From a virus: a stretch of 64,000 nucleotides of DNA. Below, piece by piece: positions 1,673-17,159 of this stretch. The position numbers were made by a program, and so were the translations under genes. Each line of letters starts with the position of its first letter. Position 1 is the stretch's first letter. The notes under the pieces are model-generated. The model was not told the DNA's origin. It was given only the letters and a program-made list of their open reading frames with translations, and did not search any database. The stretch lies in the IMG/VR virus record IMGVR_UViG_3300038468_000190, positions 1-64,000 of that record; one strand, 5' to 3'.

Positions 1673-1957
1673 TCACGACTTCAGCTTCCGAAAAAACGTC
1701 GAGTGTTTTTCGATCTGGTGCACGGTAATGCCCGCCACGAGCGACACGACCACTGCCGTTGCCACCGACACGAAGAGCGGGCGACGGTACCAGACCGTCC
1801 TACCGTCCGAGCATCCCTCGCACGCCGGGTGCTCGTCGCCGTCGACGCAGACGACGCAGTCGCCGCTCTTCAGAAAGGAGCACTCCGGACACGTGACGAT
1901 AGCGACGCGGCTCTCGACCTGTCCCGTCGCCGTCGGATACGACACGTATCCGTACAC
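1673..1957 (-). CDS. Small Cys-rich protein with C-terminal TM anchor
   Basis: CPEC, CVVC and CEGC motifs; hydrophobic C-terminus plus basic tail. Confidence 0.7.
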
Positions 1958-1958
1958 G

Positions 1959-2267
1959 CTACGCCTTGGCTTTCCTCATCCCCCACCATGCGTAGCCGAA
2001 CAGGATCCCGAGTACGATCCCACCGGAGCCCGCAAGCGCCACGACCCCGTAGCTCGTCTCGCGATACGCCTCACCGGGATCTGCCCCGATCGGGGCGTAC
2101 GCGGGAAGGAACGCGTCCTCTTCCCAGATCCCGCCCCCGATGCCGACCCGCGGGGGGCCGGCGCGGAGCGGATTTTTACCCCACCCCGGCACCGGCGCGT
2201 CCTGCCAGAACGGCGTCGCTACGGGGATCTCGTGGTAGTCCGAATCGGGAGTGTTCACGTAGGACAT
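1959..2267 (-). CDS. Tail-anchored putative virion membrane protein
   Basis: C-terminal TM + RKAKA; GIGG motif; AAGGAG RBS. Confidence 0.75.
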   Translation of the reverse strand: MSYVNTPDSDYHEIPVATPFWQDAPVPGWGKNPLRAGPPRVGIGGGIWEEDAFLPAYAPIGADPGEAYRETSYGVVALAGSGGIVLGILFGYAWWGMRKAKA

Positions 2268-2313
2268 GGCGGTTTCTCCTTCAAGGATCGCTCACCTCTT
2301 GTCCGGCAGCAAG

Positions 2314-2547
2314 TCATCCCTTTTTGATCCACAGGGCCGCCATGAAAACGGCGACCGCGACCGAGCCCGCTATGATGACCGCGCCCTTCGAAATGGAGGC
2401 GGTGAGGTTTGGCTCCATGGCGACCCAGGCGTCGTCGACGAGTGCTTGGATGGGGAGCGTCACCTCGGTGTCCCTGCCCCACGGCAAGGGGAGATCGACC
2501 CGGTAGGTCACGACCTCTCCTGGGCCTGCGCCCATCGGGTAGTACAT
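2314..2547 (-). CDS. Tail-anchored membrane protein, paralog of 2833..3219
   Basis: YYPMGAGPG...PWGRDTEVTLPIQALVDDAW + TM + KKG. Confidence 0.8.
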   Translation of the reverse strand: MYYPMGAGPGEVVTYRVDLPLPWGRDTEVTLPIQALVDDAWVAMEPNLTASISKGAVIIAGSVAVAVFMAALWIKKG

Positions 2548-2551
2548 CGGT

Positions 2552-2833
2552 TTAGCTGCCCCTTCTGCTTTTTACACCAACGCGCCCGCCGACCGTGAGC
2601 TCCCAGTCCTCTACGGCAGCCGCCGTCGCTTCTCCTCCGCCCACATCGATTTTCCGCTCCAGGAAATCCCACGCCATCGCCTCTGCCTCGTCCCGCAGCT
2701 CTTTCGCCTCGGCCGGAGAAAGGCCATACGGCCGAGCCACGTGGCGACCAGACTCCGGCAACGCAGGCAGCTGCACCATCACCGTGAACGTGAGCTCTAC
2801 GGGGATCTGAAACAAAACGTTTCGCTTCGCCAT
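2552..2833 (-). CDS. Hypothetical protein
   Basis: TGATG overlap with upstream stop; starts MAKRNVLFQIPVEL. Confidence 0.65.
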   Translation of the reverse strand: MAKRNVLFQIPVELTFTVMVQLPALPESGRHVARPYGLSPAEAKELRDEAEAMAWDFLERKIDVGGGEATAAAVEDWELTVGGRVGVKSRRGS

Positions 2834-3219
2834 CAGCGTCCCTTCTTCAGCCACCAGGCGCCGACGCCGACGGCAAGGACGAGCATCCCGCCGACCGCGA
2901 TCAAGGTCTTCGAGACGTCGTCCTTCATCATGTCGATCTCCGCGAACGCCACCTCGAGCTCGCTCCGCATGCGGGGCATGACGACGTTGTCCATCACGTC
3001 CTTGGCGAGCTTCGGCCCGTAGAGAGTGAGTTCGTTCTCCATGTCATCGATGAGCTTACTCTCGAGCTCGTTGATTCTCGGCACGGCCGCCGCCCACGCG
3101 TCGTTGATCATCTCCTGGACCGGTAGGGCGATCTCCGTGTCGTCGCCCCAGGGCCACGGCGCGTCGACCTTGTACTTCTCGACGGGCCCGGGGCCGGCAC
3201 CTACGGGGTGGTAGCTCAC
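2833..3219 (-). CDS. Tail-anchored membrane protein, paralog of 2314..2547
   Basis: GTGA-coupled start; YHPVGAGPG...PWGDDTEIALPVQEMINDAW, helical stalk, TM + KKGR. Confidence 0.8.
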   Translation of the reverse strand: MSYHPVGAGPGPVEKYKVDAPWPWGDDTEIALPVQEMINDAWAAAVPRINELESKLIDDMENELTLYGPKLAKDVMDNVVMPRMRSELEVAFAEIDMMKDDVSKTLIAVGGMLVLAVGVGAWWLKKGR

Positions 3220-3422
3220 GAAAACTCCGTCACGCACACGGCGTCGTCTGCCGTGACTTCGCCCACGACGCCGCGCCGGTGCTCTTCGGACAGGAGCGCC
3301 TTTTCGACCGTGTCCGCACAGTCCTGCGCCGCCTGGCACTTGGCCGCGAACGCCCCGTCCGCATCGACGAGCAAGTCGACCGTGTACTCGGCGCGCACCT
3401 TGACCTTGTAGAGCGCCATCAC
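3216..3422 (-). CDS. Hypothetical protein
   Basis: Coupled to both neighbours by 4-nt overlaps. Confidence 0.65.
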   Translation of the reverse strand: MMALYKVKVRAEYTVDLLVDADGAFAAKCQAAQDCADTVEKALLSEEHRRGVVGEVTADDAVCVTEFS

Positions 3423-4036
3423 GCCGCCTCCTTCGAACCCTCGAAGTGCTTACGCAAGACCTGGTAGGCCAGGTTGATCTTCTTCAGTCGCGCTTCATTC
3501 CGGGCGCGCTCGCGCGTCGATTGCGGCCTGTCGGCGTTGTGCTCGAAGGCGAGCTTCTTGTACGCCGCCCGGATCTCCTCCCAGCTCGCCGAGCGCTTGA
3601 GGCCGAGCGTTTTGAGGGCCGCTCGGATCTCCGCGTCCGTCTCTTTCGGTGGCGTGTACTGGCGCTTGTCCTGCCGCGCCCGCGCCTTGGCCTCCCCGAT
3701 GCACGGCTCGCAGATGGCGCCGGCGAAGTAGTCGACGCGGCAATGCGCGAGGCAGCAGGGCCTGCCGCAGACGTCGCATTCGGTGACGGCGAAGTTTCGG
3801 CAGGGACGAGGCGCGCTCTTCGACACATCCGGAGACGCGCACGTCTCGCCCTTGGCCACGATCGGCGTCCAGGCGATGAGGGCGTTCTGGGTGAGAAGGC
3901 GCGCCCACTCTCCGAGGACGCCGAACGCGTCGCCGACGGCTCCGGTCCGGACGTGCACTTCTTCCGACAGGACGGACGCAACCGCGCCCCAGGGGATCTT
4001 CCCTACTTCGCGCCGGAACTTCTCGAAGAGATCCAC
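3419..4036 (-). CDS. Zn-finger + degenerate J-domain (DnaJ-like) protein
   Basis: CDVCGRPCCLAHC...CEPC; TLGLKRSASWEEIRAAYKKLAFEHNADR...KKINLAYQVL, with HPD replaced by NAD. Confidence 0.8.
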   Translation of the reverse strand: MDLFEKFRREVGKIPWGAVASVLSEEVHVRTGAVGDAFGVLGEWARLLTQNALIAWTPIVAKGETCASPDVSKSAPRPCRNFAVTECDVCGRPCCLAHCRVDYFAGAICEPCIGEAKARARQDKRQYTPPKETDAEIRAALKTLGLKRSASWEEIRAAYKKLAFEHNADRPQSTRERARNEARLKKINLAYQVLRKHFEGSKEAA

Positions 4037-4040
4037 GTCC

Positions 4041-4547
4041 TCACTTGTGGAACAAGTAGCCGAGGATGAAGCCGGCAGCGACGCCGCCCCCGATGCCGAT
4101 GAGCATGGAGCTTCGTGCGTTCATGGTCGCGACTTCGGGAGCGACGGCGGCTTCCGCCCCGATGCCGGAGAAGTACTCGCCGACTCCGGAGAAGTACTCA
4201 CCCATGCCGGCGGCCGGCGCGAAGTACTCGCCCATACCGCGCATCGCGCCCTGCTTCTCGGCGCCCCACTTCCAGGAGGCCCCGAGCAGAAGCTGGCGAT
4301 TCGGGCCGTTGTTCGGCTTGAGAGCCCACTGCTGGACGGCATTGATGAGCCCTTTCTCAGCCGCGGTCGGGCGCACCCTGTTCTTCACGAACCATCCGCC
4401 CCAGCTCCAGGACGTTCCCAGGACCGTTTGCTGCGCAGTTCGATCGCTCGGCGCCTGGGACCACATCGTGAGCGCCCGGCCCATCGCCGCATCGAAGGGG
4501 TTCACGGCGGGTCCGCCGCGGCCGACTGCTCCTACTCCGGTGAACAT
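4041..4547 (-). CDS. Tail-anchored protein with G(M/V)GEYF repeats
   Basis: Start MFTGVGA at TGATG overlap; duplicated LG(T/A)SWxWG unit; 3x GxGEYF; C-terminal TM. Confidence 0.8.
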   Translation of the reverse strand: MFTGVGAVGRGGPAVNPFDAAMGRALTMWSQAPSDRTAQQTVLGTSWSWGGWFVKNRVRPTAAEKGLINAVQQWALKPNNGPNRQLLLGASWKWGAEKQGAMRGMGEYFAPAAGMGEYFSGVGEYFSGIGAEAAVAPEVATMNARSSMLIGIGGGVAAGFILGYLFHK

Positions 4548-5512
4548 CACTTCCTCCAAAACACGAGGGCGAGACCGAAGAGCGCTGCAGCACCGAGGCC
4601 GTACATCGCGACGGTGCTCATGCTCATTGTTCCTTCCGGCGCGCGGACGCCCTTCGTCTTGTCGGCGAGCGACAGGTACGGCGGCAGGACCGCGCCGCCG
4701 CCTGCCGAAAACCACGCGTAGAGCGCGGGGAGGTTCTTTTTCACGTAGTCGGGGCCGTAGGTGCCCGACTGCGGCGCCGCGAGCGCGGCCACGATGAAGC
4801 CGATGCCAGTCGCGTTCGGGTAGGACTGTGCGCCGAGATCTACCGAGACCGGCTTACCCGAAAACGACGGCGTCTTCTGCACGATGTACTGCCAGAGAAG
4901 CGACGCTTGCGGATCCCAGATCCCGCTCGTGTACCAGTCGGGCGTGTACACCTTCTGCCCCTCGACCGTGAGCGTCTGCTCGGGAGCGACGAGGCTCATC
5001 GCCGTCTTGAGCTCCTGAAGGACGTGAGCGTCGCCGAGGTCGAGCACGTTCTCGGCGGCGGCTCCGATCGCGCGCGCGTACGCGCCGAGGCTTCCGTCGT
5101 GGTAGGCCATGAGCGGCCCCGGCGCGCGCGGCCGCTCGTGGACGCCGAAGATGCCGTCGTCGAACGACCCGGGCTCGGCGTCGCCGATGCCGGCCGCGGC
5201 CTGGTCGTACCAGCCGAGGCTCCCGTCGTGGTAGGAGGCGAGCTCTCCCGGACTCGAGCCGTCCGGGGGATTACCGCCGACGACGCCGTCGGCCCACGCC
5301 ATCAGAAGCCCCGCGTCGCCGCCGCCGTACTGGCGCGCCATGCGGCCGAGACTGCCGTCGTGATAGGCCGTGAGCGGGCCCGGCATCTCGGGGTTTGGCT
5401 CCTTGCCACCGACGACGCCGTCGGCGTACGCCGTGAGGACGCCATCGTCGCCCAAGCCGCCAGCTCCCTGCACGATCCGCGTGCTACCGAAATACGCACC
5501 GAGTGAGTTCAT
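4547..5512 (-). CDS. Tail-anchored protein with (Y/W)xDG(SL/VV)G repeats
   Basis: AYADGVVGG, AYHDGSLG, AWADGVVGG, SYHDGSLG, SFDDGIFG, AYHDGSLG; TM + RK. Confidence 0.8.
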   Translation of the reverse strand: MNSLGAYFGSTRIVQGAGGLGDDGVLTAYADGVVGGKEPNPEMPGPLTAYHDGSLGRMARQYGGGDAGLLMAWADGVVGGNPPDGSSPGELASYHDGSLGWYDQAAAGIGDAEPGSFDDGIFGVHERPRAPGPLMAYHDGSLGAYARAIGAAAENVLDLGDAHVLQELKTAMSLVAPEQTLTVEGQKVYTPDWYTSGIWDPQASLLWQYIVQKTPSFSGKPVSVDLGAQSYPNATGIGFIVAALAAPQSGTYGPDYVKKNLPALYAWFSAGGGAVLPPYLSLADKTKGVRAPEGTMSMSTVAMYGLGAAALFGLALVFWRK

Positions 5513-5548
5513 GTGGACCTCGAATCCAGGCAGGAATCCTAGCGTGAT

Positions 5549-5773
5549 TCAGTCTCCGGCGAAAGCCGCTACGCGGTCCGCCAAAAAGTACATGCCGATG
5601 CCGCCCGCCACGAGCCCTATCCCGAACCACGCCCAGCCCGGAATGCCCGCGTCGAGCTCATCGGCGCCGAGCCCCACGGCGCGCCCGACGAGCCCGAGCG
5701 GCCCGCCGGCTCCGTCCATCGCGGGACCGAGCACGTTGGCCGCCTGGGCAGCGGTGCGGAGCGGATCGCTCAC
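5549..5773 (-). CDS. Small tail-anchored membrane protein
   Basis: GLGADE followed by TM. Confidence 0.7.
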   Translation of the reverse strand: MSDPLRTAAQAANVLGPAMDGAGGPLGLVGRAVGLGADELDAGIPGWAWFGIGLVAGGIGMYFLADRVAAFAGD

Positions 5774-5931
5774 ACGAGCCTCTTACCGAGGAAGTAGCCC
5801 ACGACGGCCGCGACCCCGAACGCCGCGAGGCTCGTCCACATGAGCGCGCGCTGTTCATCGTCGGTGAGCGGCGGCTCGGCCGGCGCCTCGCCGACCGGTA
5901 GCCCCGCGATGCCGACGAGGTTCATGGTCAT
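5770..5931 (-). CDS. 53-aa tail-anchored membrane protein (below ORF-track cutoff)
   Basis: MTMNLVGIAGLPVGEAPAEPPLTDDEQRALMWTSLAAFGVAAVVGYFLGKRLV; coupled on both sides. Confidence 0.7.
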   Translation of the reverse strand: MTMNLVGIAGLPVGEAPAEPPLTDDEQRALMWTSLAAFGVAAVVGYFLGKRLV

Positions 5932-6857
5932 CGCTTGTACCTCCGGTAGAGGTAGTAGCCGCCGCCTCCCACCGCGACGAGCGCGAGAATTCCCCAGAGA
6001 CCCATCATCGAGCTCTCGCGATGCTCAGGCTCTGGAGGTGCCTCCTCTTCCGGAGGCTCGTACATCGGAGGCTCCGGGGGAGTCAGGACAGGCGGACGCA
6101 TGGGAGGAGGCGCCGTGCGCACCGGCGGCGGCTGGGTCACCACAGGCGGACGCACGGGAGGAGGAGGCGGCGGAGCGACCGGCGGCCTCAGGACGACCGG
6201 CGGCAGTTCCTGGATCACCGGCGGCCTGACGACGACCGGAGGCGGCGGCGCGGGCGGCCGCGGCGGCGCTTCCCGGATCGCCGGAGGGCGGCACACCGGC
6301 CGGGCGAGGATCGATGTCCAGTACGGGATGTCGTGCTTGACCGACCAGCAGTACGCGTTACCGACCTTGTCGGGGCCGTTCGACTGCGGATACTGCCCGC
6401 AGTAGAGGTTTTTGGCGTTCTGCTCGGGCGAGAGACACGTCGGCACCGGCGGGAGGAAGCTCGGCCGCGAGCAGTACGGGAGCTTGCCGAGCGCCATCAG
6501 ATAGAACGCCGTCGAGGGGTCGCGGCAGTTCAGGCCGTCGACCGTGGCGCCGCTCATGCAGCGCATGATGATGGTCGCCGTCCCCTCGTCGATGCACTTC
6601 GGCGCCGGGCAGAGGGGCAGGTTTCTGACGTCGCAGGCAGAGAATTGGGCGAGCCGGCCCGTCATCGGCTCGACGGCGCGTATTGTCATCTGTCCCATCC
6701 CGCGAAGCGTCGAGCTCACGCACTTTTGGTTGGCTTCGTCGCGCTCCTGGGGGCTCACGCACGTCGGGGTCGGGCGGATCACGATGCCCGTCGGAGTCGG
6801 ATCGAATACGCCGAGACCGCTAACGCCCGGCTGGATGAGTCCTCGTCCGTGGAACAT
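5928..6857 (-). CDS. Cys-rich repeat, Pro-rich stalk, tail-anchored protein
   Basis: Three ~50-aa 4-Cys repeats (PTCVS..LPLC, PKCID..LPYC, PTCLS..RPVC), RPPV stalk, TM + RRYKR. Confidence 0.8.
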   Translation of the reverse strand: MFHGRGLIQPGVSGLGVFDPTPTGIVIRPTPTCVSPQERDEANQKCVSSTLRGMGQMTIRAVEPMTGRLAQFSACDVRNLPLCPAPKCIDEGTATIIMRCMSGATVDGLNCRDPSTAFYLMALGKLPYCSRPSFLPPVPTCLSPEQNAKNLYCGQYPQSNGPDKVGNAYCWSVKHDIPYWTSILARPVCRPPAIREAPPRPPAPPPPVVVRPPVIQELPPVVLRPPVAPPPPPPVRPPVVTQPPPVRTAPPPMRPPVLTPPEPPMYEPPEEEAPPEPEHRESSMMGLWGILALVAVGGGGYYLYRRYKR

Positions 6858-6868
6858 CGTCTACCTTC

Positions 6869-7129
6869 CTACTTTCTGAAAAGGAGAAACCCGATCCCGA
6901 TCGCTGCAATGCCCCCGATCGCGATGTAGAGCGGGAGGTTACTCTTCTCTTCCATTGGCGCCTCCGTGAGAGGCACGACCGTCGGAAGCGTTTTCGGCGT
7001 CGCCTCCGGCGCGACTTCCTTGATTACCGGAGGCGGCCGCGTCGGCGGCTCCTTGATCACGGGAGGCGGCCGAGTCGGGCCCGATCCGGGCAAAAAGATG
7101 AGCGGGTCTGCGCCTACGCCAGCGTACAT
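6869..7129 (-). CDS. Pro-rich tail-anchored protein
   Basis: Start MYAGVGA; duplicated TRPPPVIKE; TM + RK. Confidence 0.75.
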   Translation of the reverse strand: MYAGVGADPLIFLPGSGPTRPPPVIKEPPTRPPPVIKEVAPEATPKTLPTVVPLTEAPMEEKSNLPLYIAIGGIAAIGIGFLLFRK

Positions 7130-7133
7130 GCTG

Positions 7134-7904
7134 TCACCTGTTTCTCCAGAGGAAGAAGCCAAGCGCCGCCGCACCGAGCCCGAGCGCAATCGGCACGCCG
7201 AGCCGGAGCGGCTCGTCAGGCGCGGGCGCGAGCGGGATCGGCTGAGGCCCGGGCGCGGGCGGTTTCGCCGCGGCGTAGCCCGTCGTCGCGAGCTGAATGT
7301 CGTAGGCCTGACGAAATGTGCCAGGCGGCGGATTGTGATCGGAGCGCGACACCGGCACTTGCGCCGCGAAGACGAGGTCGCCGCCGACCGCCTTGGCGCG
7401 GGGCTCGATCGCGAGCGTTTTCTGCGGGAGCTTACTGATATCGATGCGCTCGCCCCAGTGTGCGAAGTACATCGTCGGGACGGGCTTCGCGTCGTCCTGC
7501 CGATAGACCGCTTGCGTCTCGTAGGGCGCGTACGCCGTCCCTTCCCACATCTTGGCAACGTCGCTCGTCGTCAGCGGAAGCCGCGTCACCACCACCACGA
7601 ACGGAAGTGGCGACCCGAACGTCACCTGGGTTGCGGCGTTGATCTGCCCGTCGGTGAGACCCCAGAGCTGGATGTTCGTGTCGGGGTTTATGATCTCTTC
7701 CCACTCGAGATCGCCCTTGCGCGTCGCCCATGGCGTGACGAGCCCGAGCGGACGAAGCTGCAAGGCCGAGACGATCTCCGAAAAGAGACTCGCCGCATCC
7801 ATCTGGCCGAGGGAGGTACCCGGCGGGGCGATCTCCATCTGGCGCTCGTCCCACGGCGCGGGGATCGCGTCGCCCGGGCCCTCGCTGTAGGCGCGCATCA
7901 CCAT
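7134..7904 (-). CDS. Tail-anchored putative virion protein
   Basis: 256 aa; Pro linker then TM + RNR. Confidence 0.75.
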   Translation of the reverse strand: MVMRAYSEGPGDAIPAPWDERQMEIAPPGTSLGQMDAASLFSEIVSALQLRPLGLVTPWATRKGDLEWEEIINPDTNIQLWGLTDGQINAATQVTFGSPLPFVVVVTRLPLTTSDVAKMWEGTAYAPYETQAVYRQDDAKPVPTMYFAHWGERIDISKLPQKTLAIEPRAKAVGGDLVFAAQVPVSRSDHNPPPGTFRQAYDIQLATTGYAAAKPPAPGPQPIPLAPAPDEPLRLGVPIALGLGAAALGFFLWRNR

Positions 7905-8050
7905 CCCGGCCCCCTGACTTCAGCCCAAGAGGCCAGCCGGACGCCGGTTCCCGAGCAAGACTCGGCATCCCCCATGTCCGACAGGGGTGCGGTCGTCCGT
8001 GCCCGCTGAAAGAGCGACAGCGCACGGCTGGCCTCTTGGGTTGAAATCAC
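7898..8050 (-). CDS. Possible 50-aa protein
   Basis: GTGA-coupled start that fills the gap in the operon. Confidence 0.35.
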   Translation of the reverse strand: MISTQEASRALSLFQRARTTAPLSDMGDAESCSGTGVRLASWAEVRGPGW

Positions 8051-8958
8051 CTGGGTCCTCCCCCGAGAGATCCTGGGCCGCCGCTCGCATTCGAGAGGGG
8101 CTTCATGCACTCCATCATCGTGTTGAGCCAGAGCTCCGGCATCAGCATGCCCGCGATGTCGTACTCGATGAAGGCGATCGGGCTCGGCACCGGACGAAAG
8201 ACCACGCAGCGCACCTGAAACGTCGCCCCGGGCCGCACGATCAGCGTGAACGGCACGCCGAGCGGTCCGTAGCGCCGAGGCCTTTGGGGCTGGAGCTGGT
8301 CGCCGGCGCCCGCGGCGGCGGCAAAGCTCGTTGCCGCCGCGAGATTGAAGCGGGAGTTATTCTGCAGGCCGAAGGCGCTCGCGAGGGCGGGCGGAAGCTC
8401 GGAGATACCGCCGATGGGCGGCGTGAAGGCTTCCTGAAACGTCTGAATCGGCACCGGATCGAGCTGGTAGGTGAGATTTGCGAGCTGCCGCTGATCGACC
8501 GTGGGAAGGAACCCCATGATCGAGCTGAAGCGCTGCGACTCGACCGGTACCGTGTCTCCCGGATCGATCCCGCTGAAACGAAAGACGTTCGCGCGAAGAT
8601 CGATGAGCAAAAGACAGAACGTGTCCGGCACCCGGAAGGCCCCGAGCTCGAACGTGAACGGATTCGATGGGCTCACCGACGGAAGGAACATCCCCTCCTC
8701 CGGCAGCCGCCTGTACAAGAACTCGAACGGCGTCACTTCCGGATGGACGAGGAGCGTGTTCAGGGCGCCGCCCGCGAGCTGGACGCGCTGCGCGCCGCAG
8801 CCCGGACTCATGTGCGCCCCGGGATCCATCGGCCCTGGAGGCAAGCCCGGCTCCTGCCACGGGTCGAGGACAGGCGCGGGCGAGCTCCTCGGCGGCAACA
8901 CCTCGGGGAGCCCCAGGCTTCTGACCTGCCGAGTACTGAGAACGGGTTTGATCGCCAA
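8047..8958 (-). CDS. Beta-rich virion protein, candidate single jelly-roll (minor capsid/penton)
   Basis: Alternating-strand segments PFEFLY, FTLIVRPGATFQVRCVVF, FIEYDIAG; third gene of the capsid cluster. Fold is inferred. Confidence 0.5.
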   Translation of the reverse strand: MAIKPVLSTRQVRSLGLPEVLPPRSSPAPVLDPWQEPGLPPGPMDPGAHMSPGCGAQRVQLAGGALNTLLVHPEVTPFEFLYRRLPEEGMFLPSVSPSNPFTFELGAFRVPDTFCLLLIDLRANVFRFSGIDPGDTVPVESQRFSSIMGFLPTVDQRQLANLTYQLDPVPIQTFQEAFTPPIGGISELPPALASAFGLQNNSRFNLAAATSFAAAAGAGDQLQPQRPRRYGPLGVPFTLIVRPGATFQVRCVVFRPVPSPIAFIEYDIAGMLMPELWLNTMMECMKPLSNASGGPGSLGGGPR

Positions 8959-8966
8959 CCGCGCTC

Positions 8967-9962
8967 CTACGTCATCCGCACCGGCCCCGGCGGCTGCACG
9001 ATCTTGATGCCGTGCATGCCCACGATGAGGATCGCGTCGGGCAGGCGCGTAATAGGATCGGTCGTCGCATCGGGATCGAGCTCGTCGTTGATGCCCTCGT
9101 GCACGTCGTACTGACTCGACAGGAACGGAAAGAGGCCGCCCGCAGCGTAACCCGAGAGGTTTCCCGCGGGGGGGTTACTCACGTGGGTCGGCGTCACCTT
9201 CCACTGAATCGTCTCACCGCGCTCGAAGAAGTCCAAGGCTCCGAGCTGGAAGGCGCTGTTGATGCTCTCCGAGTAGAAGGCGCTCGGAATGCCGCCCTCG
9301 GTGTTGTCGCGCGGGTATCCGGCGCCTTGGTTCAGCATCTGGATGAGGAAGTCGCCTTCCATCGACCGGAAGCCGGACATGTTCGAGGGGGAGGCGACGA
9401 TGGGAGCGCCCGTGCCCGGAGGGGCGATGCCCGCCGTTGGTTGGAAAACGCCCGCGCCGGCGTCGTTCAAGTCCCACGCCGAGTGCATCGGACGAAACCG
9501 ACCGAAGGAGCGACCCTGAAAGACCGCCTGCTCCTGCGTCACGGGATCGACGCGCCGAAACTGAAAGGCCGACTGGAGCGTCGCGTAGCGCGCGACGCCG
9601 ACGAAGGGGCCGTCCTGCGAGACGCTCTTCGTGCCCTGGGCCTGCGAAATCGAATTCGAAGCGATCGGGATCGACACGACGAAGTCGAAGGGGATCCTCC
9701 GACCTGGAATCGATTCGATATAGCGCACGCGCTCGTCGACACCGACCGATCCCGAGCCGTAGCCGCCACCGCGAGCCGACTGGATCTTCTCGAGCGCGTC
9801 GGCGAGCGCTTGCATCTCTCGCTGGTGTCGCTCGTTCTCTTGCTTGACCTGGGCGACGCCGCCCTGCGCGCCCGTAACGGCGCTCTTCATTTCCCTGAGC
9901 TCTCGGGCGAGGTAGCCGACGCCCTGCTGGAGCTCGCCGATGATCCGTCCAAAATCAGCCAT
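8967..9962 (-). CDS. N-terminal coiled coil + beta-rich domain, candidate second jelly-roll capsid protein
   Basis: PFDFVVSIPI, DGPFVGVARY, FFERGETIQWKVTP, ILIVGMHG. Fold is inferred. Confidence 0.5.
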   Translation of the reverse strand: MADFGRIIGELQQGVGYLARELREMKSAVTGAQGGVAQVKQENERHQREMQALADALEKIQSARGGGYGSGSVGVDERVRYIESIPGRRIPFDFVVSIPIASNSISQAQGTKSVSQDGPFVGVARYATLQSAFQFRRVDPVTQEQAVFQGRSFGRFRPMHSAWDLNDAGAGVFQPTAGIAPPGTGAPIVASPSNMSGFRSMEGDFLIQMLNQGAGYPRDNTEGGIPSAFYSESINSAFQLGALDFFERGETIQWKVTPTHVSNPPAGNLSGYAAGGLFPFLSSQYDVHEGINDELDPDATTDPITRLPDAILIVGMHGIKIVQPPGPVRMT

Positions 9963-10071
9963 CTTGAAAGTGCCTCCGTGAGGAGTACCGGACGGCGCGG
10001 GCCTTTCGAGCGCCGCGCCGTCCGTGCCTTACCGGGGAAGAGAGCCCGGGCCCCGGCGACCCGGGGAGCGA

Positions 10072-10875
10072 CTACTGGACGTCGCGAGCGAAAAGTCCAT
10101 CGAACGTGAACTGGATCACCTTGTTCACGCCGTCGGGCGTATTCAAATTCGATTGGAGCGACAGCATGTTCCGGCCGTTGCCGGTGACCGTCGTGCCAGC
10201 GATCTGACCGTTGCCGCCGTCGGGCAGCGGGTTGATCTCCGCCACGCATTTGACGTTCTGCCGGGGAGGCAGAAGGATCGCGCGCGCGAGCCGGAGAATC
10301 GCCGTGTGGTCCGGCGTCCCGTTGTCGAAGTGGATGAGGTCCGACGAGCCGCCGAGGTCGCCCCAGAGGCCGCCGCCGTCCGGGAAGTACTTCGTCGGCA
10401 TGTTCGTGATGGAGAACTTTTCTCCGGTACCATAGCTCCAGTGCAGCTGCTCTTCAGCTTGCCAATAAAGCCTGTATACGTCCTCCGTCGAGCCGGGGTA
10501 GTTGAACGCGCCCGGGCCGGCGATAGCGCCGTTCGGGTCGGCTCCGCCCTGCGAGAAGAACGCCGCCGCTCCCGCCTGGGAGAAGTCGCCGTTGTTCTTG
10601 ATCGCGCCGTTCGCGAAGCCCGTCGCCCGGATCTGCGGATTGCGGAACCACACGAACACGCGAAGCGCGAGCGTCACGTGGCTCTGGTCGGACGGCAGCG
10701 TCGACCCGTTCTGCAGGTTCGTCAGGGCGTTGATGTCGTCCTGGCGCGCGGCATTCGTGAAGAGCGCCGTGCGTTGATTGACCTGCTGGGTGTTGCCGCC
10801 GAGACCGGCGGTGCGGACGAGCGTGTCGTAGAAGGGCTGATGCACACGCTCTCTCACGTTCGTGAGTTTTGCCAT
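10072..10875 (-). CDS. Candidate major capsid protein (single jelly-roll type)
   Basis: QPFYDT, LALRVFVWF, ILLPPRQNVKCVAEI, VIQFTFDG strand pattern; strong AAAGGAAA RBS, long leader, downstream GC hairpin. Confidence 0.55.
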   Translation of the reverse strand: MAKLTNVRERVHQPFYDTLVRTAGLGGNTQQVNQRTALFTNAARQDDINALTNLQNGSTLPSDQSHVTLALRVFVWFRNPQIRATGFANGAIKNNGDFSQAGAAAFFSQGGADPNGAIAGPGAFNYPGSTEDVYRLYWQAEEQLHWSYGTGEKFSITNMPTKYFPDGGGLWGDLGGSSDLIHFDNGTPDHTAILRLARAILLPPRQNVKCVAEINPLPDGGNGQIAGTTVTGNGRNMLSLQSNLNTPDGVNKVIQFTFDGLFARDVQ

Positions 10876-11058
10876 GTTGTTGGTTTCCTTTGGAAACGGG
10901 TTAGTGACCCGGAAGATCCGTTTTTTGCAATTGGGTGTCGTCCCAGTTATTCCGCCGAGTCGGTTCTGACACCGCGGCCCCGGGGCTCGACGCGAGAGGA
11001 GAAGAGGGACCTCTCACGCCGTCCTACCGGGGCGCGGCGGGGCTAGTCGGAGACTTCG
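10876..11058 (-). promoter_or_regulatory. Long structured leader with strong RBS before the candidate MCP
   Basis: Only long intergenic gap inside the capsid cluster; inverted repeats (GTGAGAGG/CCTCTCGC) and CCAAAGGAAACCAACAAC-ATG. Confidence 0.5.
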
Positions 11059-13539
11059 CTAGCCCGAAAGCACTCCGTTTCCGCCGGGGCCCTGGAGGAT
11101 CCCAGCCGGGAGCTCGCTCTCCGTATAGGCCGCGTCGGCACTCGTCGTGCCGGCCCAGAGCGGCCCACTCGGCACCCACTGGCTCTGCGTGCCGACCGTG
11201 TACTCGCTGAAGCCGCCGTCCGACGCCTTCGCTGCGAAGTACTCGCCCATGCCCGCAGCCGCCTGACGGTACCGGCCCATGCCGGCGGCCGCCTGACGGT
11301 AGCCCTGCCCCAAACCCGCCGCGCTCTCGGCGAGCGTGAGCGCGTCGTCGAGGTTCGCGTCGGGGCGGAGGCCGTCGTCGATGGGAAGATTTCCCATGTG
11401 GCTCTGCGACGGTTGCAGGGCGAGCGGGCCAGCCTTCTCGTAGTGCCCGACGCCTTCGACGCCGGGACCCGCGAAGTACTCACCCATACCGCTCTGCGCC
11501 GCGAAGTACTCGCCCATGCCGGCTGCGGCCTGCTGGAACTGTCCGACAGGTGCGTAGTGCGGCATGATCGAGGTCGCGTGACGAGCCACGCCGAGGCCGT
11601 GCATCGGCCGGCGCCGCCGCCCGCGGGTACCGCGTAGCGCGTAGGCCGCGCTATTCTGGTAGCCCTCGAGATAGGACAGGACCTCCGGCTGATTGGCCAC
11701 GGTGAGGATCGTGTGGACCAGGTTCTGGAAGAAGGAGAGCGCGATGCCGGCTCCGATGGAGTTACGGCTGTCCGGCTTCATCGGCACCTTGGACAGGAGC
11801 GCGATGCCCGCGAGACCGAGGAGGCCTCCCGCGATCGGCTTCTGCCAGGTTCCGATGATCGAGGGCTTTCCGTCCGCGGTCATCGTCGCCATGCCGGCGA
11901 CGGTGATCTGGCCACTGGTTGCGTCGGTCTTCGTCAGCATCCGGAGCGCGAACCCCGTCAATGCCTTGTGACCGAAGAAACCCGTGAGCGCGAAAAACCC
12001 CGTCTTCGCGAGCGTCTGGAGGTCGCTCATGAAGGCGTTGCGCCGGTAGCTCCGGCGGCGGCGGTTATCGCGCATCCGGCGGCGTCCGTGACGGCGGCGG
12101 CGCCGATTTTCGGCGTACCGGCGGCGGCTCCGACGGCGGCGTCGGCGCGGATTCTCCTCGTAGTGGCGGCGGCGGTTTTTCGCGAGGTAGAGGCCTCGCC
12201 GCAAACGACGGACCTTCCTCCGACCGATCCTCCGCGGATGACGGGCAGTCGAGCGACGACGACGCTTGTGCGACCGGCGACGCGAATGCGACCGGCGCTT
12301 TCGCGCATGCGCCTTACGCCGACGGCTCGAGCGACGACGACGAGCAGGCGACGCCTTTCTCTTGCGACGCCGGCGCGCGACGCGCGCGTGCGAGCGGCGC
12401 CGTCCATGACGACGCACCCTACGAACCTTCCGGCGTCCCGCACGGCGGGAACGCTTGTGCCCTTTTCGCTTCCTTCGTCTTGCCACTTTTCTTGCTCCCG
12501 CGTTCGGGGTGAACGCATCACCGCTCCGCTCGACGCGAGCGGCAGCACGTTTACGACGCTGTGCGATCCGTTCCCGAGCGCGCCCGTAACGAGAGGACGT
12601 CTTGTAGTCCTTCGCACTGACGGCGCCGGCAATGGCCCACTGCGGAATCCTGCGGCGTTTGCCGCGCTTGGCCTTGTACGCGTACGTGTAGCGACGCCGG
12701 CCCGAGCGCGGATCGGTTGCCCGGATCCTCCGGTACGGCCCGTACGCCACGCGCACGCGATGAGTCTTGCCGCGACGAGCGCGCACCTTTCGGTACTGCT
12801 TCGGAAAGCTCGCTCGGCGCTTTCGCCTGCGGATCGCGGCCCGGCGCTCGGGCGTCATCTTCGCCCGGCGTGCCGCGGCGCGTGCCCGGCGCTTCTGTGC
12901 TGCGGCGGCGCGGCGGGCCCGGCGAGCGGCGCTCGCCTGTTTCCGCTTTTCGGCCATGCTCGATCGGCGAGCCTTTCGCTTAGCGGCCGCCGCGGCGCGC
13001 TTGGCCTTTCGCTTCTGAGCCGCCTCGCGGCGCCGCTGAGCCTTCTTGCCGTAGATGCGCTCGTGCCCCGAGCGGTACGACGGGCTCGCTACTTGAGCCG
13101 GGCCTTCGTTTCGGCGCATCCGGCGGCGGCTCTTCGGAAACTTCCGAGAGGCGCTTCGCATCGCCGCTGCCTTCGAGAGGCCGCGACGGCGCGCTGCCTG
13201 AAACGCCGCGAGGCGTTTGCCCGCCCGGCGGCGGGCGGCGTTCGAGGTCATGCGACCACTGTTCTTGTTCATGCGGCGCACGAACTTCGCCCGGTGCACT
13301 TTGTGTCCCATGCTTCGGTTCTCCATGAGCCGGCGAGCGCGTCGGAGTCTCTCTGCACGGGATTTCCCCGCGCTCCGCGCGCGTGCCGAATACGCCCCAC
13401 GGCCGTTGACCGCCGAGAGCGTCGTCACGCCCATCGGGTTAGGCCGATAGCCGCGCGGACGCTTTGCCACGCGATATGAGCCGACGTCCGCTTCCCGTAT
13501 TGGAAACGCTCGACCGTATGCTCTGTGCCTTCCTGCCAC
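11059..13539 (-). CDS. Arg/Lys-rich protamine-like core protein with hydrophobic segments and GMGEYF-repeat C-terminus
   Basis: About 500 aa of poly-Arg tracts, three hydrophobic stretches, then AAAGMGEYF repeats; directly upstream of the MCP candidate. Start uncertain. Confidence 0.75.
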   Translation of the reverse strand: MAGRHRAYGRAFPIREADVGSYRVAKRPRGYRPNPMGVTTLSAVNGRGAYSARARSAGKSRAERLRRARRLMENRSMGHKVHRAKFVRRMNKNSGRMTSNAARRRAGKRLAAFQAARRRGLSKAAAMRSASRKFPKSRRRMRRNEGPAQVASPSYRSGHERIYGKKAQRRREAAQKRKAKRAAAAAKRKARRSSMAEKRKQASAARRARRAAAAQKRRARAAARRAKMTPERRAAIRRRKRRASFPKQYRKVRARRGKTHRVRVAYGPYRRIRATDPRSGRRRYTYAYKAKRGKRRRIPQWAIAGAVSAKDYKTSSRYGRARERIAQRRKRAAARVERSGDAFTPNAGARKVARRRKRKGHKRSRRAGRRKVRRVRRHGRRRSHARVARRRRKRKASPARRRRSSRRRKAHARKRRSHSRRRSHKRRRRSTARHPRRIGRRKVRRLRRGLYLAKNRRRHYEENPRRRRRRSRRRYAENRRRRRHGRRRMRDNRRRRSYRRNAFMSDLQTLAKTGFFALTGFFGHKALTGFALRMLTKTDATSGQITVAGMATMTADGKPSIIGTWQKPIAGGLLGLAGIALLSKVPMKPDSRNSIGAGIALSFFQNLVHTILTVANQPEVLSYLEGYQNSAAYALRGTRGRRRRPMHGLGVARHATSIMPHYAPVGQFQQAAAGMGEYFAAQSGMGEYFAGPGVEGVGHYEKAGPLALQPSQSHMGNLPIDDGLRPDANLDDALTLAESAAGLGQGYRQAAAGMGRYRQAAAGMGEYFAAKASDGGFSEYTVGTQSQWVPSGPLWAGTTSADAAYTESELPAGILQGPGGNGVLSG

Positions 13540-13650
13540 GTCCTACTCGCAAACCACTACGGGCTGCGAGGCGTCGGGAAGGCGCCCGCTAACTAAAGAG
13601 GAGCCTACCCGGGGCGGAGGGCCACGTCAACAAGGCCGCTCCTCGCCGGA

Positions 13651-14013
13651 CTAGCGGCGGTGACGAGACAGCGCAAATCCAGCCAAAAACGCGACCGCGC
13701 CGATGGCGGCGAGCCGGACGCCGAGCCCCGGTTTGGGCTCGAGAGCCGCGCGGGCCTTCTTCCTAAAGCACTCGACCGGATCCCACGAGGGTTTCGCCCG
13801 CGGATCGCAATCGTCGACCCATCGCTCGATGTCGCGCGACGTGTAGCCCGCCTGCTCGTACGGCGTCGCGAGCGCAAAGAGCGCTTGTCCCTTCGGTACT
13901 TTCTTCGGATCGACATGTGCTTCTTGAAGGAGCACCGCCACGTAGGCGAGCTTGCGCGCGGCGCGGCCGGCGTTCCAGGCTGTCTCTTTGATGACGGGAG
14001 GTCCGGCCATCAT
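13651..14013 (-). CDS. Tail-anchored membrane protein
   Basis: C-terminal TM + RHRR. Confidence 0.7.
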   Translation of the reverse strand: MMAGPPVIKETAWNAGRAARKLAYVAVLLQEAHVDPKKVPKGQALFALATPYEQAGYTSRDIERWVDDCDPRAKPSWDPVECFRKKARAALEPKPGLGVRLAAIGAVAFLAGFALSRHRR

Positions 14014-15071
14014 CGCCTCCAGAACACGAATAGCCCGAGCGCCGCGACGGCGCCGAGAGCGGCGAACATCTTGGCGCGGTTATCACGAAGCGCGAGCTTC
14101 GCTTCTCCGAGCGCAATGTTCATTTGCTCGCGAAAACAATTCGGATCGAGATTGCACCCATCGAACCAATCGAGGACCTCCGACGAGCTAATCCCGATCG
14201 AGCCGAGCGCGTTCATGATCGAGAGGTCCGTGGACTTGTCGGAAAGGCCGAGCGCCATCGTGAGCGCCCGCCGTGCGCCGCCGAGCGCTTCGAGGTATGC
14301 CGCGATCTCCGTGAACTCCTGCTTCTTTTGCTGATCGGCGGCGCCCTCGCCGCTCTGGATCATCTTTCTCCGGATCTCTTTTTCGACTTCAGCCTTCGTC
14401 GGCGGCGGCGACGGCGTCCCGCCCGGCACTTGCACCGAGGCGCGCGGATCGCCCGGAGCCGGCGGCGACGCCGAAAACACCGTGCGCGCGTAGGCAGGAC
14501 CCGGACCAATCGACGCCTTGCAGATCGGAGAGGCGAGACACGCCTGGACGTGTCCGTCCGGCCCCGTCGGCAGCACGAACGACTTCTGACACCATCCGGT
14601 CTTCGAGACGTTCTCGGGCACCGCAAGATCGGTGAGCGACGCCCACTGGCGAAAGGAGTCTTCGAATTGCATCTCGCACGCCGACGGATCACCGCCGTGG
14701 CGCATCGCGAGCACGATCTCGTCGACGACGCGCACGGCCGCCTGCCGGAGCGACATCCTGGACGGGTTCGGGCGCGTGCGTTCTCGGTCGACGATCGTCG
14801 CAACCACGGCGGCGGCGAGGATCCGAGCCGTTTGCTCCCGCGGCCCGAATACCGCCGCAATGTCCGGGGCGGCCGGAGTCCCGGCGATCTCCTGACCGCA
14901 GAGCTCGATCTCGGAGGCAGCGCCCGACAGGAGCCCGGTCACGACATCCTGAGCGACCTTCTCGAGCGCCGCGTAGCCGCCGCTTTTCGGCGCAAGGTAG
15001 TCGAGACCGCCGGGATCGATCTCGCAGCTCAAGCCCTCGAACATGCTGCCGCCTAGACCCGAGTAGCTCAC
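14010..15071 (-). CDS. Tail-anchored putative virion protein
   Basis: Starts MSYSGLGG; TM + WRR. Confidence 0.75.
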   Translation of the reverse strand: MSYSGLGGSMFEGLSCEIDPGGLDYLAPKSGGYAALEKVAQDVVTGLLSGAASEIELCGQEIAGTPAAPDIAAVFGPREQTARILAAAVVATIVDRERTRPNPSRMSLRQAAVRVVDEIVLAMRHGGDPSACEMQFEDSFRQWASLTDLAVPENVSKTGWCQKSFVLPTGPDGHVQACLASPICKASIGPGPAYARTVFSASPPAPGDPRASVQVPGGTPSPPPTKAEVEKEIRRKMIQSGEGAADQQKKQEFTEIAAYLEALGGARRALTMALGLSDKSTDLSIMNALGSIGISSSEVLDWFDGCNLDPNCFREQMNIALGEAKLALRDNRAKMFAALGAVAALGLFVFWRR

Positions 15072-15229
15072 CGGCTCCCCCTCCAGACGAGATACGCCGC
15101 GCCGAAGAAGAGCGTCGCTCCGAGGACGCCGATGACGGTCGGCTTCACCTCCGCCCGCTCGATCTTCTCGAGCTCGGCCACGATGGCCTCGATCGCCGAT
15201 TTCTGTGAGCTCTGTCCGGGCGCGGCCAT
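15068..15229 (-). CDS. Small tail-anchored protein
   Basis: MAAPGQ..., TM + RGSR. Confidence 0.6.
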   Translation of the reverse strand: MAAPGQSSQKSAIEAIVAELEKIERAEVKPTVIGVLGATLFFGAAYLVWRGSR

Positions 15230-15233
15230 GGGC

Positions 15234-17159
15234 TTAGCGCATTCTACCAAGGGTCACGCCCAAAAGCGCTGCGCCTCCGGCCGTGAGAAGCCCGTAGTTC
15301 AAGAGGTCGGCTTTTCTCCGGCCGCGCTTTTTCGCCTCGAGCGCTGCGTGGCGGAGCCCCGCCGCACGAGCCGCCACGGCCCGAGCCGCCGCGCGCTTTT
15401 GTGCCGCGCTCGCGACCTCCCACTTCACCTCTGCCGCCTGCTCCATGTGGTATCTGATGCCGTACTCGGTCACGGCGGCGCTCACCGTGCGCGTGATGTC
15501 GCGTTCGACGAGCGCGACAGCCGCCGCCGCCTGCTCGAGCGACTTGAACATGTACGCCGCCCACGCCGGAGCCGGGCACGGGCCTACGGCCGTCCCGAAG
15601 TTCACGGTGCCCACATGCCCGACGAGCGTCGTCAGATACTCGTAGTCCGAGTGCACGATCTCTTCCCAGCGCTGGACGTTCCAGCTCTTGAGCTCCGTCG
15701 GCTTGTAGGTCGACGGCTCGACCCATTGATCGGGCCTGCCGCGCATCGCGAAGAAGACCTGGTTCGGCGAGACGTAGCGACGAGCTCCCCAGAAGGCGAG
15801 CGCGCTCGGCGCGTCGCATCCGGGAGGCCTCTTCGAAATAGCGGGCACGCGTTTCAGCGCTTCCGGGCTGAGCGCGAACGCATCTCGCGTAACGATCTGA
15901 TCGGAAGAGACGGTTAGGTAGGGGCAGCCCAAGGGCTCGGCGCACGAGCGGCTCATCTGATACGGGTACGTGCGGTACTTCGGGGCTTTCCCCTTTTTTA
16001 CTTCGGACGGGTTCGAGATGATGGGACTGCCAGCGCCGTCTCGGATGACGTCGAGCGTCGTCTCTCCGAAGATTCGAATGCCCTGGTCTCTGGTGCACAC
16101 GCCCCGCGGCGTCAGCCAGTCCTGATTCTGGCGAATGGAAGCGCTAAGCGTATCGTTGATCGATTGCCAGTAGTGCTGGTACTCGAGCCAGAGAGCGACC
16201 GAGAGGGCCTCACACTGTTGACTTGCCGTAGCCGCCGCCGCCGCCGCCGTGTCCTGCGCCGCTTTGAGCTTGTCCGAGTCGGTCGGTCCCCAGCCGAATG
16301 CCTCCACGACGCCCGCGACGAGAAGCTGTGAGAGGAGTGCGCCGATCGGAGCCGGGAGCCCGAACGCCTGCCCGATCACTGCACCGACGAAGCCGGCGGC
16401 GCCGATGACGATGCCCTTACCCTCTTCGCTCGTCACACGCCCGTCGGCGAGCGCATCGAACGTCGTCTCGAAGAGATCGAAGGGGATGCCAGGAGCAAAC
16501 TGCGCGACTCCCGCTCGCGCGCAAGCGGAGATGAAGCTACTGACGTCGCTAGCGTCCACGATCGGGACCCCGAACGACGATAGAAACGACGTCCCGAGAT
16601 GCACCGCCCAGAAGACGGCCTGCTCGGGCGTGTCGGGAAAGCCCGTGACGAGCTCGCTAGCCGCAATGAACTCCGGCGGGAGCCCGATCTCGGCCGTGTT
16701 CGCGATGACGAATGCCCGCGCCATCCGGACGCCGCTCGCGCCGTCGACCGGGAAACCGTTCGTGGCGGCGTAGCGCTTCACCCACTCTTCGATCGCCCCT
16801 TCGGTCATCGGCGAAAAGAGCGACGGGACGACCTTCGTCGCTCCCGAGAGCTTGTCCTCGAACACCTTGGCGCCGCGACTGATACCGTCCTGCATCTCCT
16901 TGGACGCGAAGACCGACGCTTGCTGCTTCGCCCAGGGACCGATCTCCGAAGAAACCGTCGGCACCCAGGGCGGCGCGCCAGACGTCTGCTGGTATCGAGC
17001 CCGCGCGCTCGCTGCCTCACCTACCGGAATGAACCCCCGCGCGTGATCGTCGAGACTACCGGAGGTGCCGGCGTCCGGAGGCAGCGGCAGGCGGGACGGT
17101 AGAGCGCCTAGCGCCCGACCGGGCAGCCACAGGCCCGACGCCGTACGAGAATACGTCAC
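15234..17159 (-). CDS. Large membrane-associated virion protein (internal hydrophobic hairpin + C-terminal TM)
   Basis: 641 aa; GIVIGAAGFVGAVIGQAFGLPAPIGALL hairpin. Confidence 0.75.
   Translation of the reverse strand: MTYSRTASGLWLPGRALGALPSRLPLPPDAGTSGSLDDHARGFIPVGEAASARARYQQTSGAPPWVPTVSSEIGPWAKQQASVFASKEMQDGISRGAKVFEDKLSGATKVVPSLFSPMTEGAIEEWVKRYAATNGFPVDGASGVRMARAFVIANTAEIGLPPEFIAASELVTGFPDTPEQAVFWAVHLGTSFLSSFGVPIVDASDVSSFISACARAGVAQFAPGIPFDLFETTFDALADGRVTSEEGKGIVIGAAGFVGAVIGQAFGLPAPIGALLSQLLVAGVVEAFGWGPTDSDKLKAAQDTAAAAAATASQQCEALSVALWLEYQHYWQSINDTLSASIRQNQDWLTPRGVCTRDQGIRIFGETTLDVIRDGAGSPIISNPSEVKKGKAPKYRTYPYQMSRSCAEPLGCPYLTVSSDQIVTRDAFALSPEALKRVPAISKRPPGCDAPSALAFWGARRYVSPNQVFFAMRGRPDQWVEPSTYKPTELKSWNVQRWEEIVHSDYEYLTTLVGHVGTVNFGTAVGPCPAPAWAAYMFKSLEQAAAAVALVERDITRTVSAAVTEYGIRYHMEQAAEVKWEVASAAQKRAAARAVAARAAGLRHAALEAKKRGRRKADLLNYGLLTAGGAALLGVTLGRMR

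Follow-up and report, generated by a model that had tools for sequence, protein, structure and literature searches.

Three adjacent genes of a 140-kb virus as a candidate outer-shell set with two predicted single jelly rolls

To our knowledge, genomes measure about 10–45 kb in the prokaryotic viruses that combine a jelly-roll capsid with an inner membrane, the large genomes of prokaryotic viruses are attributed to tailed HK97 phages, and a single-jelly-roll shell paired with motor-less, protamine-like DNA loading has to date a single known example, an archaeal virus of 20 kb. Helvetiavirae/Halopanivirales genomes, exemplified by P23-77 (capsid proteins VP16/VP17) and by SH1, HHIV-2, and HCIV-1 (VP4/VP7), measure roughly 16–31 kb and carry, side by side, the genes of two vertical single-jelly-roll major capsid proteins; double-jelly-roll capsid proteins include PRD1 P3, PBCV-1 Vp54, the MCPs of iridoviruses and faustovirus, and vaccinia D13. 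Sulfolobus polyhedral virus 1 (SPV1, Portogloboviridae), which infects the archaeal hyperthermophile Saccharolobus and has a circular genome of ~20 kb, builds its shell from hexamers of the single jelly-roll protein VP4 and pentamers of VP10 (PDB 6oj0), and a basic protein condenses its DNA into a nucleoprotein core without a packaging ATPase (PMC8459092). In SSIP-1, a cultured bacterial virus that has a membrane but no tail and reportedly encodes two types of MCP, the adjacent small structural genes gp44–gp48 directly follow the gene for the giant structural protein gp43 (PMC6356626).

The locus that we compare with these systems lies in IMG/VR record IMGVR_UViG_3300038468_000190 (140,124 bp) of an uncultured virus; positions 1 to 64,000 of the record form the window. 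As a first-pass annotation had claimed, three consecutive ORFs are present on its minus strand, encoding P0001 (10072..10875; 267 aa, ATG start), P0002 (8967..9962; 331 aa, ATG start), and P0003 (8047..8958; 303 aa), the last with a TTG start whose AGGAG overlaps the P0002 stop. With a probability of about 0.6, we take these genes to encode the soluble proteins that form the outer shell of a bacterial virus with a large genome (140 kb), an internal membrane, and no tail, with P0001, a soluble protein predicted to form a single jelly-roll-type beta-sandwich, as the candidate major shell protein, P0002 as a candidate second shell or vertex protein, and P0003 as a third candidate for either of these roles. 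The further assumption that the 267-aa gene has the strongest ribosome-binding site in the module did not hold up, as its AAGGA (−5.6 kcal/mol against the anti-SD) ranks 16th among the 29 module genes, and the GGAGG of the P0002 gene (−9.5 in anti-SD pairing) ranks second.

Each of the three proteins heads a large conserved family of hundreds of sequence clusters, none of them annotated; that of P0003 has 181 representatives when clustered at 50% identity, and 171 match at E ≤ 1e-10. The trio was found in all 17 related viral loci (contigs of 38–182 kb), with the P0003 homologue directly after the position of the P0002 homologue in 17 loci, and the order Arg-rich protein, P0001, P0002, P0003 is constant wherever the genes were detected. 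Neither Pfam nor PHROG gave any match for the three proteins and seven neighbors, tblastn of each of the three against 50,697 phage records returned nothing, and profile searches of PDB sequences produced only noise together with coiled-coil matches to the P0002 helix.

The short motifs quoted in the first-pass annotation are all in place, with QPFYDT at residues 13–18, ILLPPRQNVKCV at 200–211, and FTFDG at 256–260 of P0001; IPFDFV at 90–95, FFERGETIQWKV at 245–256, and VGMHG at 314–318 of P0002; and TPFEFL at 76–81, IVRPGATFQVRC at 240–251, and YDIAG at 266–270 of P0003. Within each family, many of these positions show little or no variation, and in the predicted models of P0001 and P0002 the motifs fall on equivalent elements, namely the opening strand, a strand-turn-strand unit close to the C-terminus, and the final long strand. 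Diverged paralogy of the three proteins nevertheless stands unproven, though not disproved, because profile–profile signal is absent: hhalign among the three family profiles gave probabilities below 1%, likewise with a deeper P0003 profile (Neff 5.4). The best segment between profiles A7 and A1, itself nonsignificant, is the motif pair named in the annotation, and a shared pattern beyond chance was not confirmed at the sequence level.

Structure prediction yielded a compact single barrel with a jelly-roll sandwich for P0001 and, for P0002, an N-terminal helix of ~60 aa followed by a Gly-rich linker and a single-barrel jelly-roll domain (residues 88–331), so that both are predicted jelly-roll sandwiches. 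The top structural match of P0002 is the SPV1 capsid protein, and that of P0001 is a tie between the SPV1 capsid protein and TasA; Helvetiavirae and double-jelly-roll capsid proteins are among the further fold matches of P0002, and about half of the rows obtained for its beta-domain in an unbiased search of 48,161 chains are icosahedral capsid proteins. Foldseek against the PDB and BFVD gave no match at E ≤ 0.001, with capsid proteins prominent among the weak rows; the third-best weak match of P0001 is a 211-aa BFVD entry equal in length to SSIP-1 gp46, an agreement of length that does not establish identity. The proposal that all three proteins are single jelly rolls is supported by the models of P0001 and P0002, for which single-jelly-roll capsid proteins of membrane-containing icosahedral viruses rank first or close to first among solved structures. 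It goes beyond what we found for P0003, a soluble protein with a Pro-rich N-terminus and a conserved core of ~220 aa that appears beta-rich in a crude estimate made from its alignment (33% strand, 5% helix); the ESM Atlas gave neither a model nor named neighbors for P0003 and its homologue P0249.

Jelly rolls are also frequent in fibers, spikes, and decoration proteins, and the matches of P0001 and P0002 include PRD1 P5, phage tail fibers, and the KHP40 cement protein. The proteins might then be virion parts other than shell subunits, for instance receptor-binding spikes, lectin-like adhesins, or membrane-shell bridges, with the true major capsid protein encoded by another unannotated module gene, for example that of the 353-, 641-, or 851-aa product; the helix-linker-head layout of P0002 is spike-like, and a fold assignment is lacking for several of the large module proteins, searches of the PDB with the 851- and 641-aa proteins having returned nothing. 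We consider this unlikely, as P0001 shows the highest tblastn identity among module genes in every related locus, which would be unusual for a receptor binder, the best matches of P0001 and P0002 are to capsid proteins and span ~130–147 residues, and TM helices are present in both the 353-aa and the 641-aa candidate.

The gene context favors a tailless, membrane-containing virion. The three genes sit in a co-oriented virion module (1673..23775, minus strand) in which no Pfam or PHROG structural family was found and in which, by hydropathy scan, about 20 of the 29 products checked end in one TM helix followed by basic residues, suggesting that the particle may contain an internal lipid membrane. 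Among these is a 256-aa tail-anchored protein (7134..7904, minus strand; C-terminal TM helix and basic tail) that is encoded directly downstream of P0003 and follows it in 14 of 17 loci. Directly upstream of P0001, and with a homologue at that position in 15 of 17 loci, lies the gene for an 826-aa protein (11059..13539, minus strand) with R+K of 27.7% and one TM call, in which a protamine-like Arg-rich part of ~540 aa precedes hydrophobic helices and GMGEYF repeats; judged by composition, it is probably a DNA-condensing core protein. P0001, P0002, and P0003 are among the few module proteins that lack a TM anchor, and the hydropathy scan, which covered TM segments, found one in none of the three. 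This last result argues against reading them as secreted or fiber-forming TasA-like jelly rolls of a large plasmid-like or vesicle-forming element, as do the viral class given by IMG/VR to the record and its relatives, several of which have terminal repeats, and the endolysins, Arg-rich DNA-binding protein, and co-oriented late-type module, all of which fit a lytic virus; we regard such a nonvirion origin as very unlikely. Several endolysin PHROG families are encoded in the genome and, because of their presence, the host would appear to be a peptidoglycan-bearing bacterium.

Searches for packaging, head, and tail genes used Pfam and PHROG profiles on ORFs and in six frames, an approach that could miss very divergent genes. 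In six frames of this genome, Phage_capsid (PF05065), Phage_portal (PF04860), and Terminase_6N (PF03237) had no match at E ≤ 1; the terminase, HK97, and portal Pfam models had none at E ≤ 0.1 in 13 relatives, five of them with terminal repeats; and PHROG searches of 131 ORFs recovered no head, packaging, or tail family except collagen repeats and a NUDIX artifact. The double-jelly-roll families PF09018 and PF04451 were likewise without matches in six frames, FtsK_SpoIIIE had none at E ≤ 1, and the sole Pox_A32 match is a P-loop (E 0.006) next to DnaB at 43 kb. Walker A motifs are confined to genes of replication or AAA type at a distance from the module, inside which no ORF carries one. If the element were a tailed phage with an HK97 capsid, a portal, and a terminase that have diverged past detection, the three proteins would be accessory decoration or fiber proteins; this reading would be consistent with the ability of such genes to escape profile searches and with the matches of collagen-like proteins to "tail fiber" PHROGs. 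Given that these hallmarks are undetected here and in the relatives, that the module lacks a Walker A ATPase, and that no tailed-phage module resembles its block of ~20 tail-anchored membrane proteins, we hold this to be very improbable. Two PHROG matches were set aside on inspection: phrog_15528, labeled "portal protein" (E 1e-11), corresponds to a NUDIX domain at 33841–34500 and also matches in 14 of 14 control genomes, and phrog_8638 (E 1e-158), considered as a structural gene, is an FtsH-like AAA ATPase at 111–113 kb.

The initial description of the virion as sphaerolipovirus-like fails on membership, since an FtsK/HerA-superfamily packaging ATPase beside the capsid genes, a Helvetiavirae trait, was not found among module ORFs or in the PHROG and Pfam scans, no sequence match to the capsid chains of these viruses in the PDB was retrieved, and the genome is 140 kb. 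Searched against all PDB chains, profiles A1, A2, and A3 retrieved no capsid protein at E ≤ 1 (A7 none at E ≤ 5); chains of P23-77, SH1, HHIV-2, and HCIV-1 are presumably in that sequence set, as the entries appear in the fold searches. The 6oj0 chains (VP4/VP10) were also not retrieved at E ≤ 1, yet SPV1 is the nearest analogue, closer than the sphaerolipoviruses. It shares with this locus a single jelly-roll fold, here in the predicted models of the candidate shell proteins P0001 and P0002. The 826-aa product encoded next to P0001, protamine-like by composition, may play the part of the basic SPV1 core protein, and no packaging ATPase was detected. Unlike SPV1, this virus has a 140-kb, GC-rich genome with peptidoglycan hydrolases, three different conserved soluble proteins in place of VP4 and VP10, a long N-terminal helix on P0002, and a core protein that is giant, protamine-like, and membrane-anchored. 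SSIP-1 resembles the locus in its run of small structural genes after a giant protein gene but differs in its 44-kb genome and in a gp43 that is not protamine-like (R 8%, K 6%), and it was rejected as a sequence relative, the best result of hmmsearch --max with A1, A2, and A3 against 30 SSIP-1 proteins being E 0.014 at 5 bits. Double-jelly-roll viruses (Tectiviridae, PM2, and the like) have two fused jelly rolls in one capsid protein and so differ from this locus, where P0001 and P0002 are modeled with one barrel each.

For the outer-shell set that we favor, the ORFs, their conservation and order, the predicted folds of P0001 and P0002, and the lack of TM helices and of recognized hallmark genes are observations, from which we infer the shell role, the stoichiometry, the membrane, and the motor-less packaging. 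P0001 would probably be the major shell protein, since no other module protein is as well conserved and stable RNA structures lie on both sides of its gene. P0002, with a second jelly roll unrelated in sequence to that of P0001, could supply the other capsomer subunit, as happens in viruses with two MCPs, or be a vertex protein, given its jelly roll behind an N-terminal helix; this 60-aa helix could extend to the membrane or fasten subunits to one another. P0003 would be the third conserved soluble member of the set, perhaps the penton, and assigning the individual proteins to the roles of major capsid, second capsid, or penton is guesswork. The shell would probably be built over a membrane studded with the ~20 tail-anchored proteins, and the DNA would probably be condensed by the neighboring protamine-like protein rather than pumped by a motor.

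More tentatively, and at somewhat less than even odds, these genes may specify the capsid of bacterial viruses of 110–180 kb that form a widespread lineage not yet described, with an icosahedral shell of two to three different single-jelly-roll proteins, a protein-rich membrane, and motor-less, protamine-like DNA loading. Such a lineage would be either a new, deep-rooting branch of the jelly-roll-capsid viruses or a separate origin of them. Large jelly-roll bacterial viruses of this kind were not found described in the literature searched. If the proposal is correct, a bacterial lineage of this size with a single-jelly-roll shell and no recognizable packaging ATPase would break the size rule and supply an intermediate form for discussions of the evolution of single and double jelly-roll capsids and their packaging systems; standard marker-gene screens would be missing a common soil and wetland virus group, for which the P0001, P0002, and P0003 families could serve as marker genes.

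Scans for sigma-70 promoters and intrinsic terminators around the three genes found no more than expected by chance. The P0001 gene is flanked on both sides by unusually stable RNA structures. Ahead of it (10876..11058, minus strand), folding energy and sequence indicate a structured region followed by an A-rich leader, the RNA at 10920–11062 having an MFE of −62.8 kcal/mol (z −3.65), and the intergenic RNA after it (9963..10071, minus strand) forms three predicted stem-loops, one a long stem, with an MFE of −61.6 kcal/mol (z −3.35) that none of 200 shuffles equaled in stability.

The three consecutive minus-strand genes for P0001 (267 aa, window 10072-10875), P0002 (331 aa, 8967-9962) and P0003 (303 aa, 8047-8958) appear to encode, as a set, the soluble proteins of the outer shell of a large bacterial virus that has a membrane but no tail, a reading to which we assign a probability of roughly 60%. 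The major shell protein would probably be P0001. P0002, which has an N-terminal helical arm, would be a second jelly-roll protein of the shell or of its vertices, and P0003 a third conserved component. The source IMG/VR virus record is 140,124 bp long with a GC content of 66% and an estimated completeness of 100% (CheckV), the window being its first 64 kb. P0003 starts at a TTG codon, with an AGGAG box overlapping the P0002 stop codon, and the corresponding ESM Atlas record begins at Met44 (window 8829-8958, minus strand). We favor the longer form with its Pro-rich N-terminus because homologues are 295-303 aa long and the AGGAG box lies 7 nt before the TTG; little of this N-terminal stretch is conserved among family members. 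The first-pass annotation had credited P0001 with the strongest ribosome binding site in the module, which is incorrect: its Shine-Dalgarno sequence (AAGGA) is average, ranking 16th of 29, versus second for that of P0002 (GGAGG). Unusually stable RNA structures are predicted on both sides of the P0001 gene (z -3.35 and -3.65).

Structural models support a jelly-roll fold for two of the three proteins for which it had been proposed. The P0001 model (pLDDT 80, pTM 0.80) is a beta-sandwich of eight main strands plus insertions, with matches below the best one to TNF-like, calicivirus and picornavirus S-domain, PRD1 P5 and HHIV-2 jelly rolls. In the P0002 model (pLDDT 70), a 60-residue helix and a Gly-rich linker precede a sandwich spanning residues 88-322, which matches HCIV-1 (7.2-7.5), iridovirus, faustovirus and D13 (6.5-7.3), STIV A223 (7.0) and P23-77 VP17 (6.7). 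Cellular jelly rolls score close to these for P0002, including the enzyme PHM (about 8) and nucleoplasmin (about 7). A rival reading, that the jelly rolls have a role in the virion other than in its shell, we consider unlikely. No model of P0003 or of a homologue is present in the ESM Atlas. A crude alignment-averaged propensity estimate, which misses some but recovers most of the strands modelled in P0001 and P0002, gives 33% strand and 5% helix for P0003, in about 8-9 segments, values compatible with a jelly roll that are no evidence for one.

The same annotation had taken the three proteins to be diverged paralogues on the basis of an early PF motif and a C-terminal pattern. All of the quoted motifs are found in P0001, P0002 and P0003, yet relatedness was not borne out at the sequence level, as hhalign comparisons between family profiles gave a probability below 1% for every pair, a result unchanged with a deeper P0003 profile (136 sequences, Neff 5.4). 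The best segment between profiles A7 and A1, itself non-significant, is the very motif pair originally noticed (TLIVRPGATFQVRC vs AILLPPRQNVKC); the likeness is therefore real and statistically empty. In the P0001 and P0002 models, the motifs fall on equivalent elements, with PF opening the first strand, a strand-turn-strand close to the C-terminus, and a Gly within the final long strand. Judging from these models, the motifs mirror a common build, not demonstrable homology.

The surrounding co-oriented virion module (window 1673-23775, minus strand) is unusually uniform in its tail-anchored design: of the 29 products checked, about 20 have a single hydrophobic helix at the C-terminus with 2-5 basic residues after it. 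P0001, P0002 and P0003 belong to the small minority that lack a transmembrane segment. A TasA-like role outside the virion is the reading that we regard as least probable. Directly upstream of P0001 lies the gene for an 826-aa Arg-rich protein (11059-13539, minus strand), which is 27.7% R+K overall; its first ~540 aa are almost pure Arg/Lys/Ala and protamine-like, and beyond them come hydrophobic helices and GMGEYF repeats. The viral DNA would probably be condensed by this adjacent protein, with no motor to pump it in. At the module edge, an 837-aa protein (23811-26324, minus strand), a candidate virion-borne depolymerase, combines an apiosidase-like glycoside-hydrolase domain (E 2e-35) with a C-terminal domain of the collagen-binding type. 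Of the unexplained genes left of the virion block, the largest (29403-31958, minus strand) encodes a soluble, basic 851-aa protein (14% R+K) that matched nothing in Pfam, PHROGs or the PDB.

Searches for hallmark genes came back negative. With Pfam on 30 of the genome's larger ORFs and PHROGs on 131 ORFs, no family of terminases, portals, capsids or tails was matched except for collagen-repeat matches to "tail fiber" families and one "portal" match. The latter was rejected as a 219-aa NUDIX/MutT hydrolase (window 33841-34500, minus strand) covering only positions 520-623 of phrog_15528, which evidently contains a portal-NUDIX fusion. Up to six collagen-repeat ORFs were seen in the PHROG scan, three of them confirmed with Pfam Collagen, at window 1-1671 (minus strand), which runs off the contig end, and, beyond the window, at G000 69609-70943 and 134429-136894. 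A six-frame search (E<=1) found no Terminase_6N, HK97 Phage_capsid, Phage_portal, PRD1 P3, NCLDV capsid or FtsK_SpoIIIE; Pox_A32 matched only the P-loop of an AAA protein beside DnaB, and Walker A motifs were confined to that protein, DnaB and an FtsH-like AAA protein. Beyond the window, an FtsH/Cdc48-like AAA ATPase is encoded at G000 111362-113374 (plus strand; phrog_8638, E 2.5e-160), with one TGA within the six-frame match. Thirteen related records (111-179 kb, five with direct terminal repeats) likewise had no match to the terminase, HK97 or portal Pfam models. That this is a tailed phage whose hallmark genes have diverged beyond detection is compatible with searches that are uncalibrated for far-off phages, but we find it improbable in the face of these consistent negatives.

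Several endolysin families were detected, which points to a bacterial host with peptidoglycan. Homologues of P0001 (59-72% identity) also occur on four MAG contigs, in bins assigned to Pirellulales (two), Pseudomonadota and Pseudomonadales; as one of them, at 122.7 kb, is near whole-virus size, these are probably binned virus genomes, and they offer a weak hint of a Planctomycetota host.

Among known groups, the proposed virus would work most like SPV1 of the Portogloboviridae. The ICTV profile (PMC8459092) describes SPV1 as having a shell of the single-jelly-roll proteins VP4 and VP10, along with subcapsomer membrane proteins, a lipid layer and a VP1-DNA nucleoprotein core. The present virus falls outside the Portogloboviridae: it shares no sequence similarity with SPV1, has a bacterial host and has a genome seven times larger. 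The sphaerolipovirus-like (Helvetiavirae) affinity suggested earlier fails on packaging ATPase, sequence homology and genome size, whereas a pair of neighbouring genes for putative single-jelly-roll capsid proteins is consistent with the predicted folds. SSIP-1 is a tailless membrane phage in culture, with a 44-kb genome that reportedly encodes two MCP types (PMC6356626). In it, too, small structural genes lie in a row immediately behind the gene for a giant structural protein, but there is no HMM-level similarity. Our literature search found no description of jelly-roll-capsid bacterial viruses of this size, and interest in the trio would be high if a shell role were experimentally confirmed.

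Neither Pfam nor PHROGs matched P0001-P0003 or seven neighbors, and tblastn against 50,697 phage records found no match for any of the three. Among metagenomes, each heads a large conserved family, with 666 clusters at 90% identity for P0001, 571 clusters for P0002, and 149 scored clusters for P0003 (181 representatives at 50% identity, 171 at E<=1e-10); the contigs that carry these homologues reach 138 kb. The order P0001-P0002-P0003 is kept in all 17 related viral contigs compared (38-182 kb), with the Arg-rich homologue directly upstream of that of P0001 in 15 and a tail-anchored protein after P0003 in 14. Across these loci, tblastn identity is 55-93% for P0001, always the highest of the module genes, 40-78% for P0002 and 32-72% for P0003.
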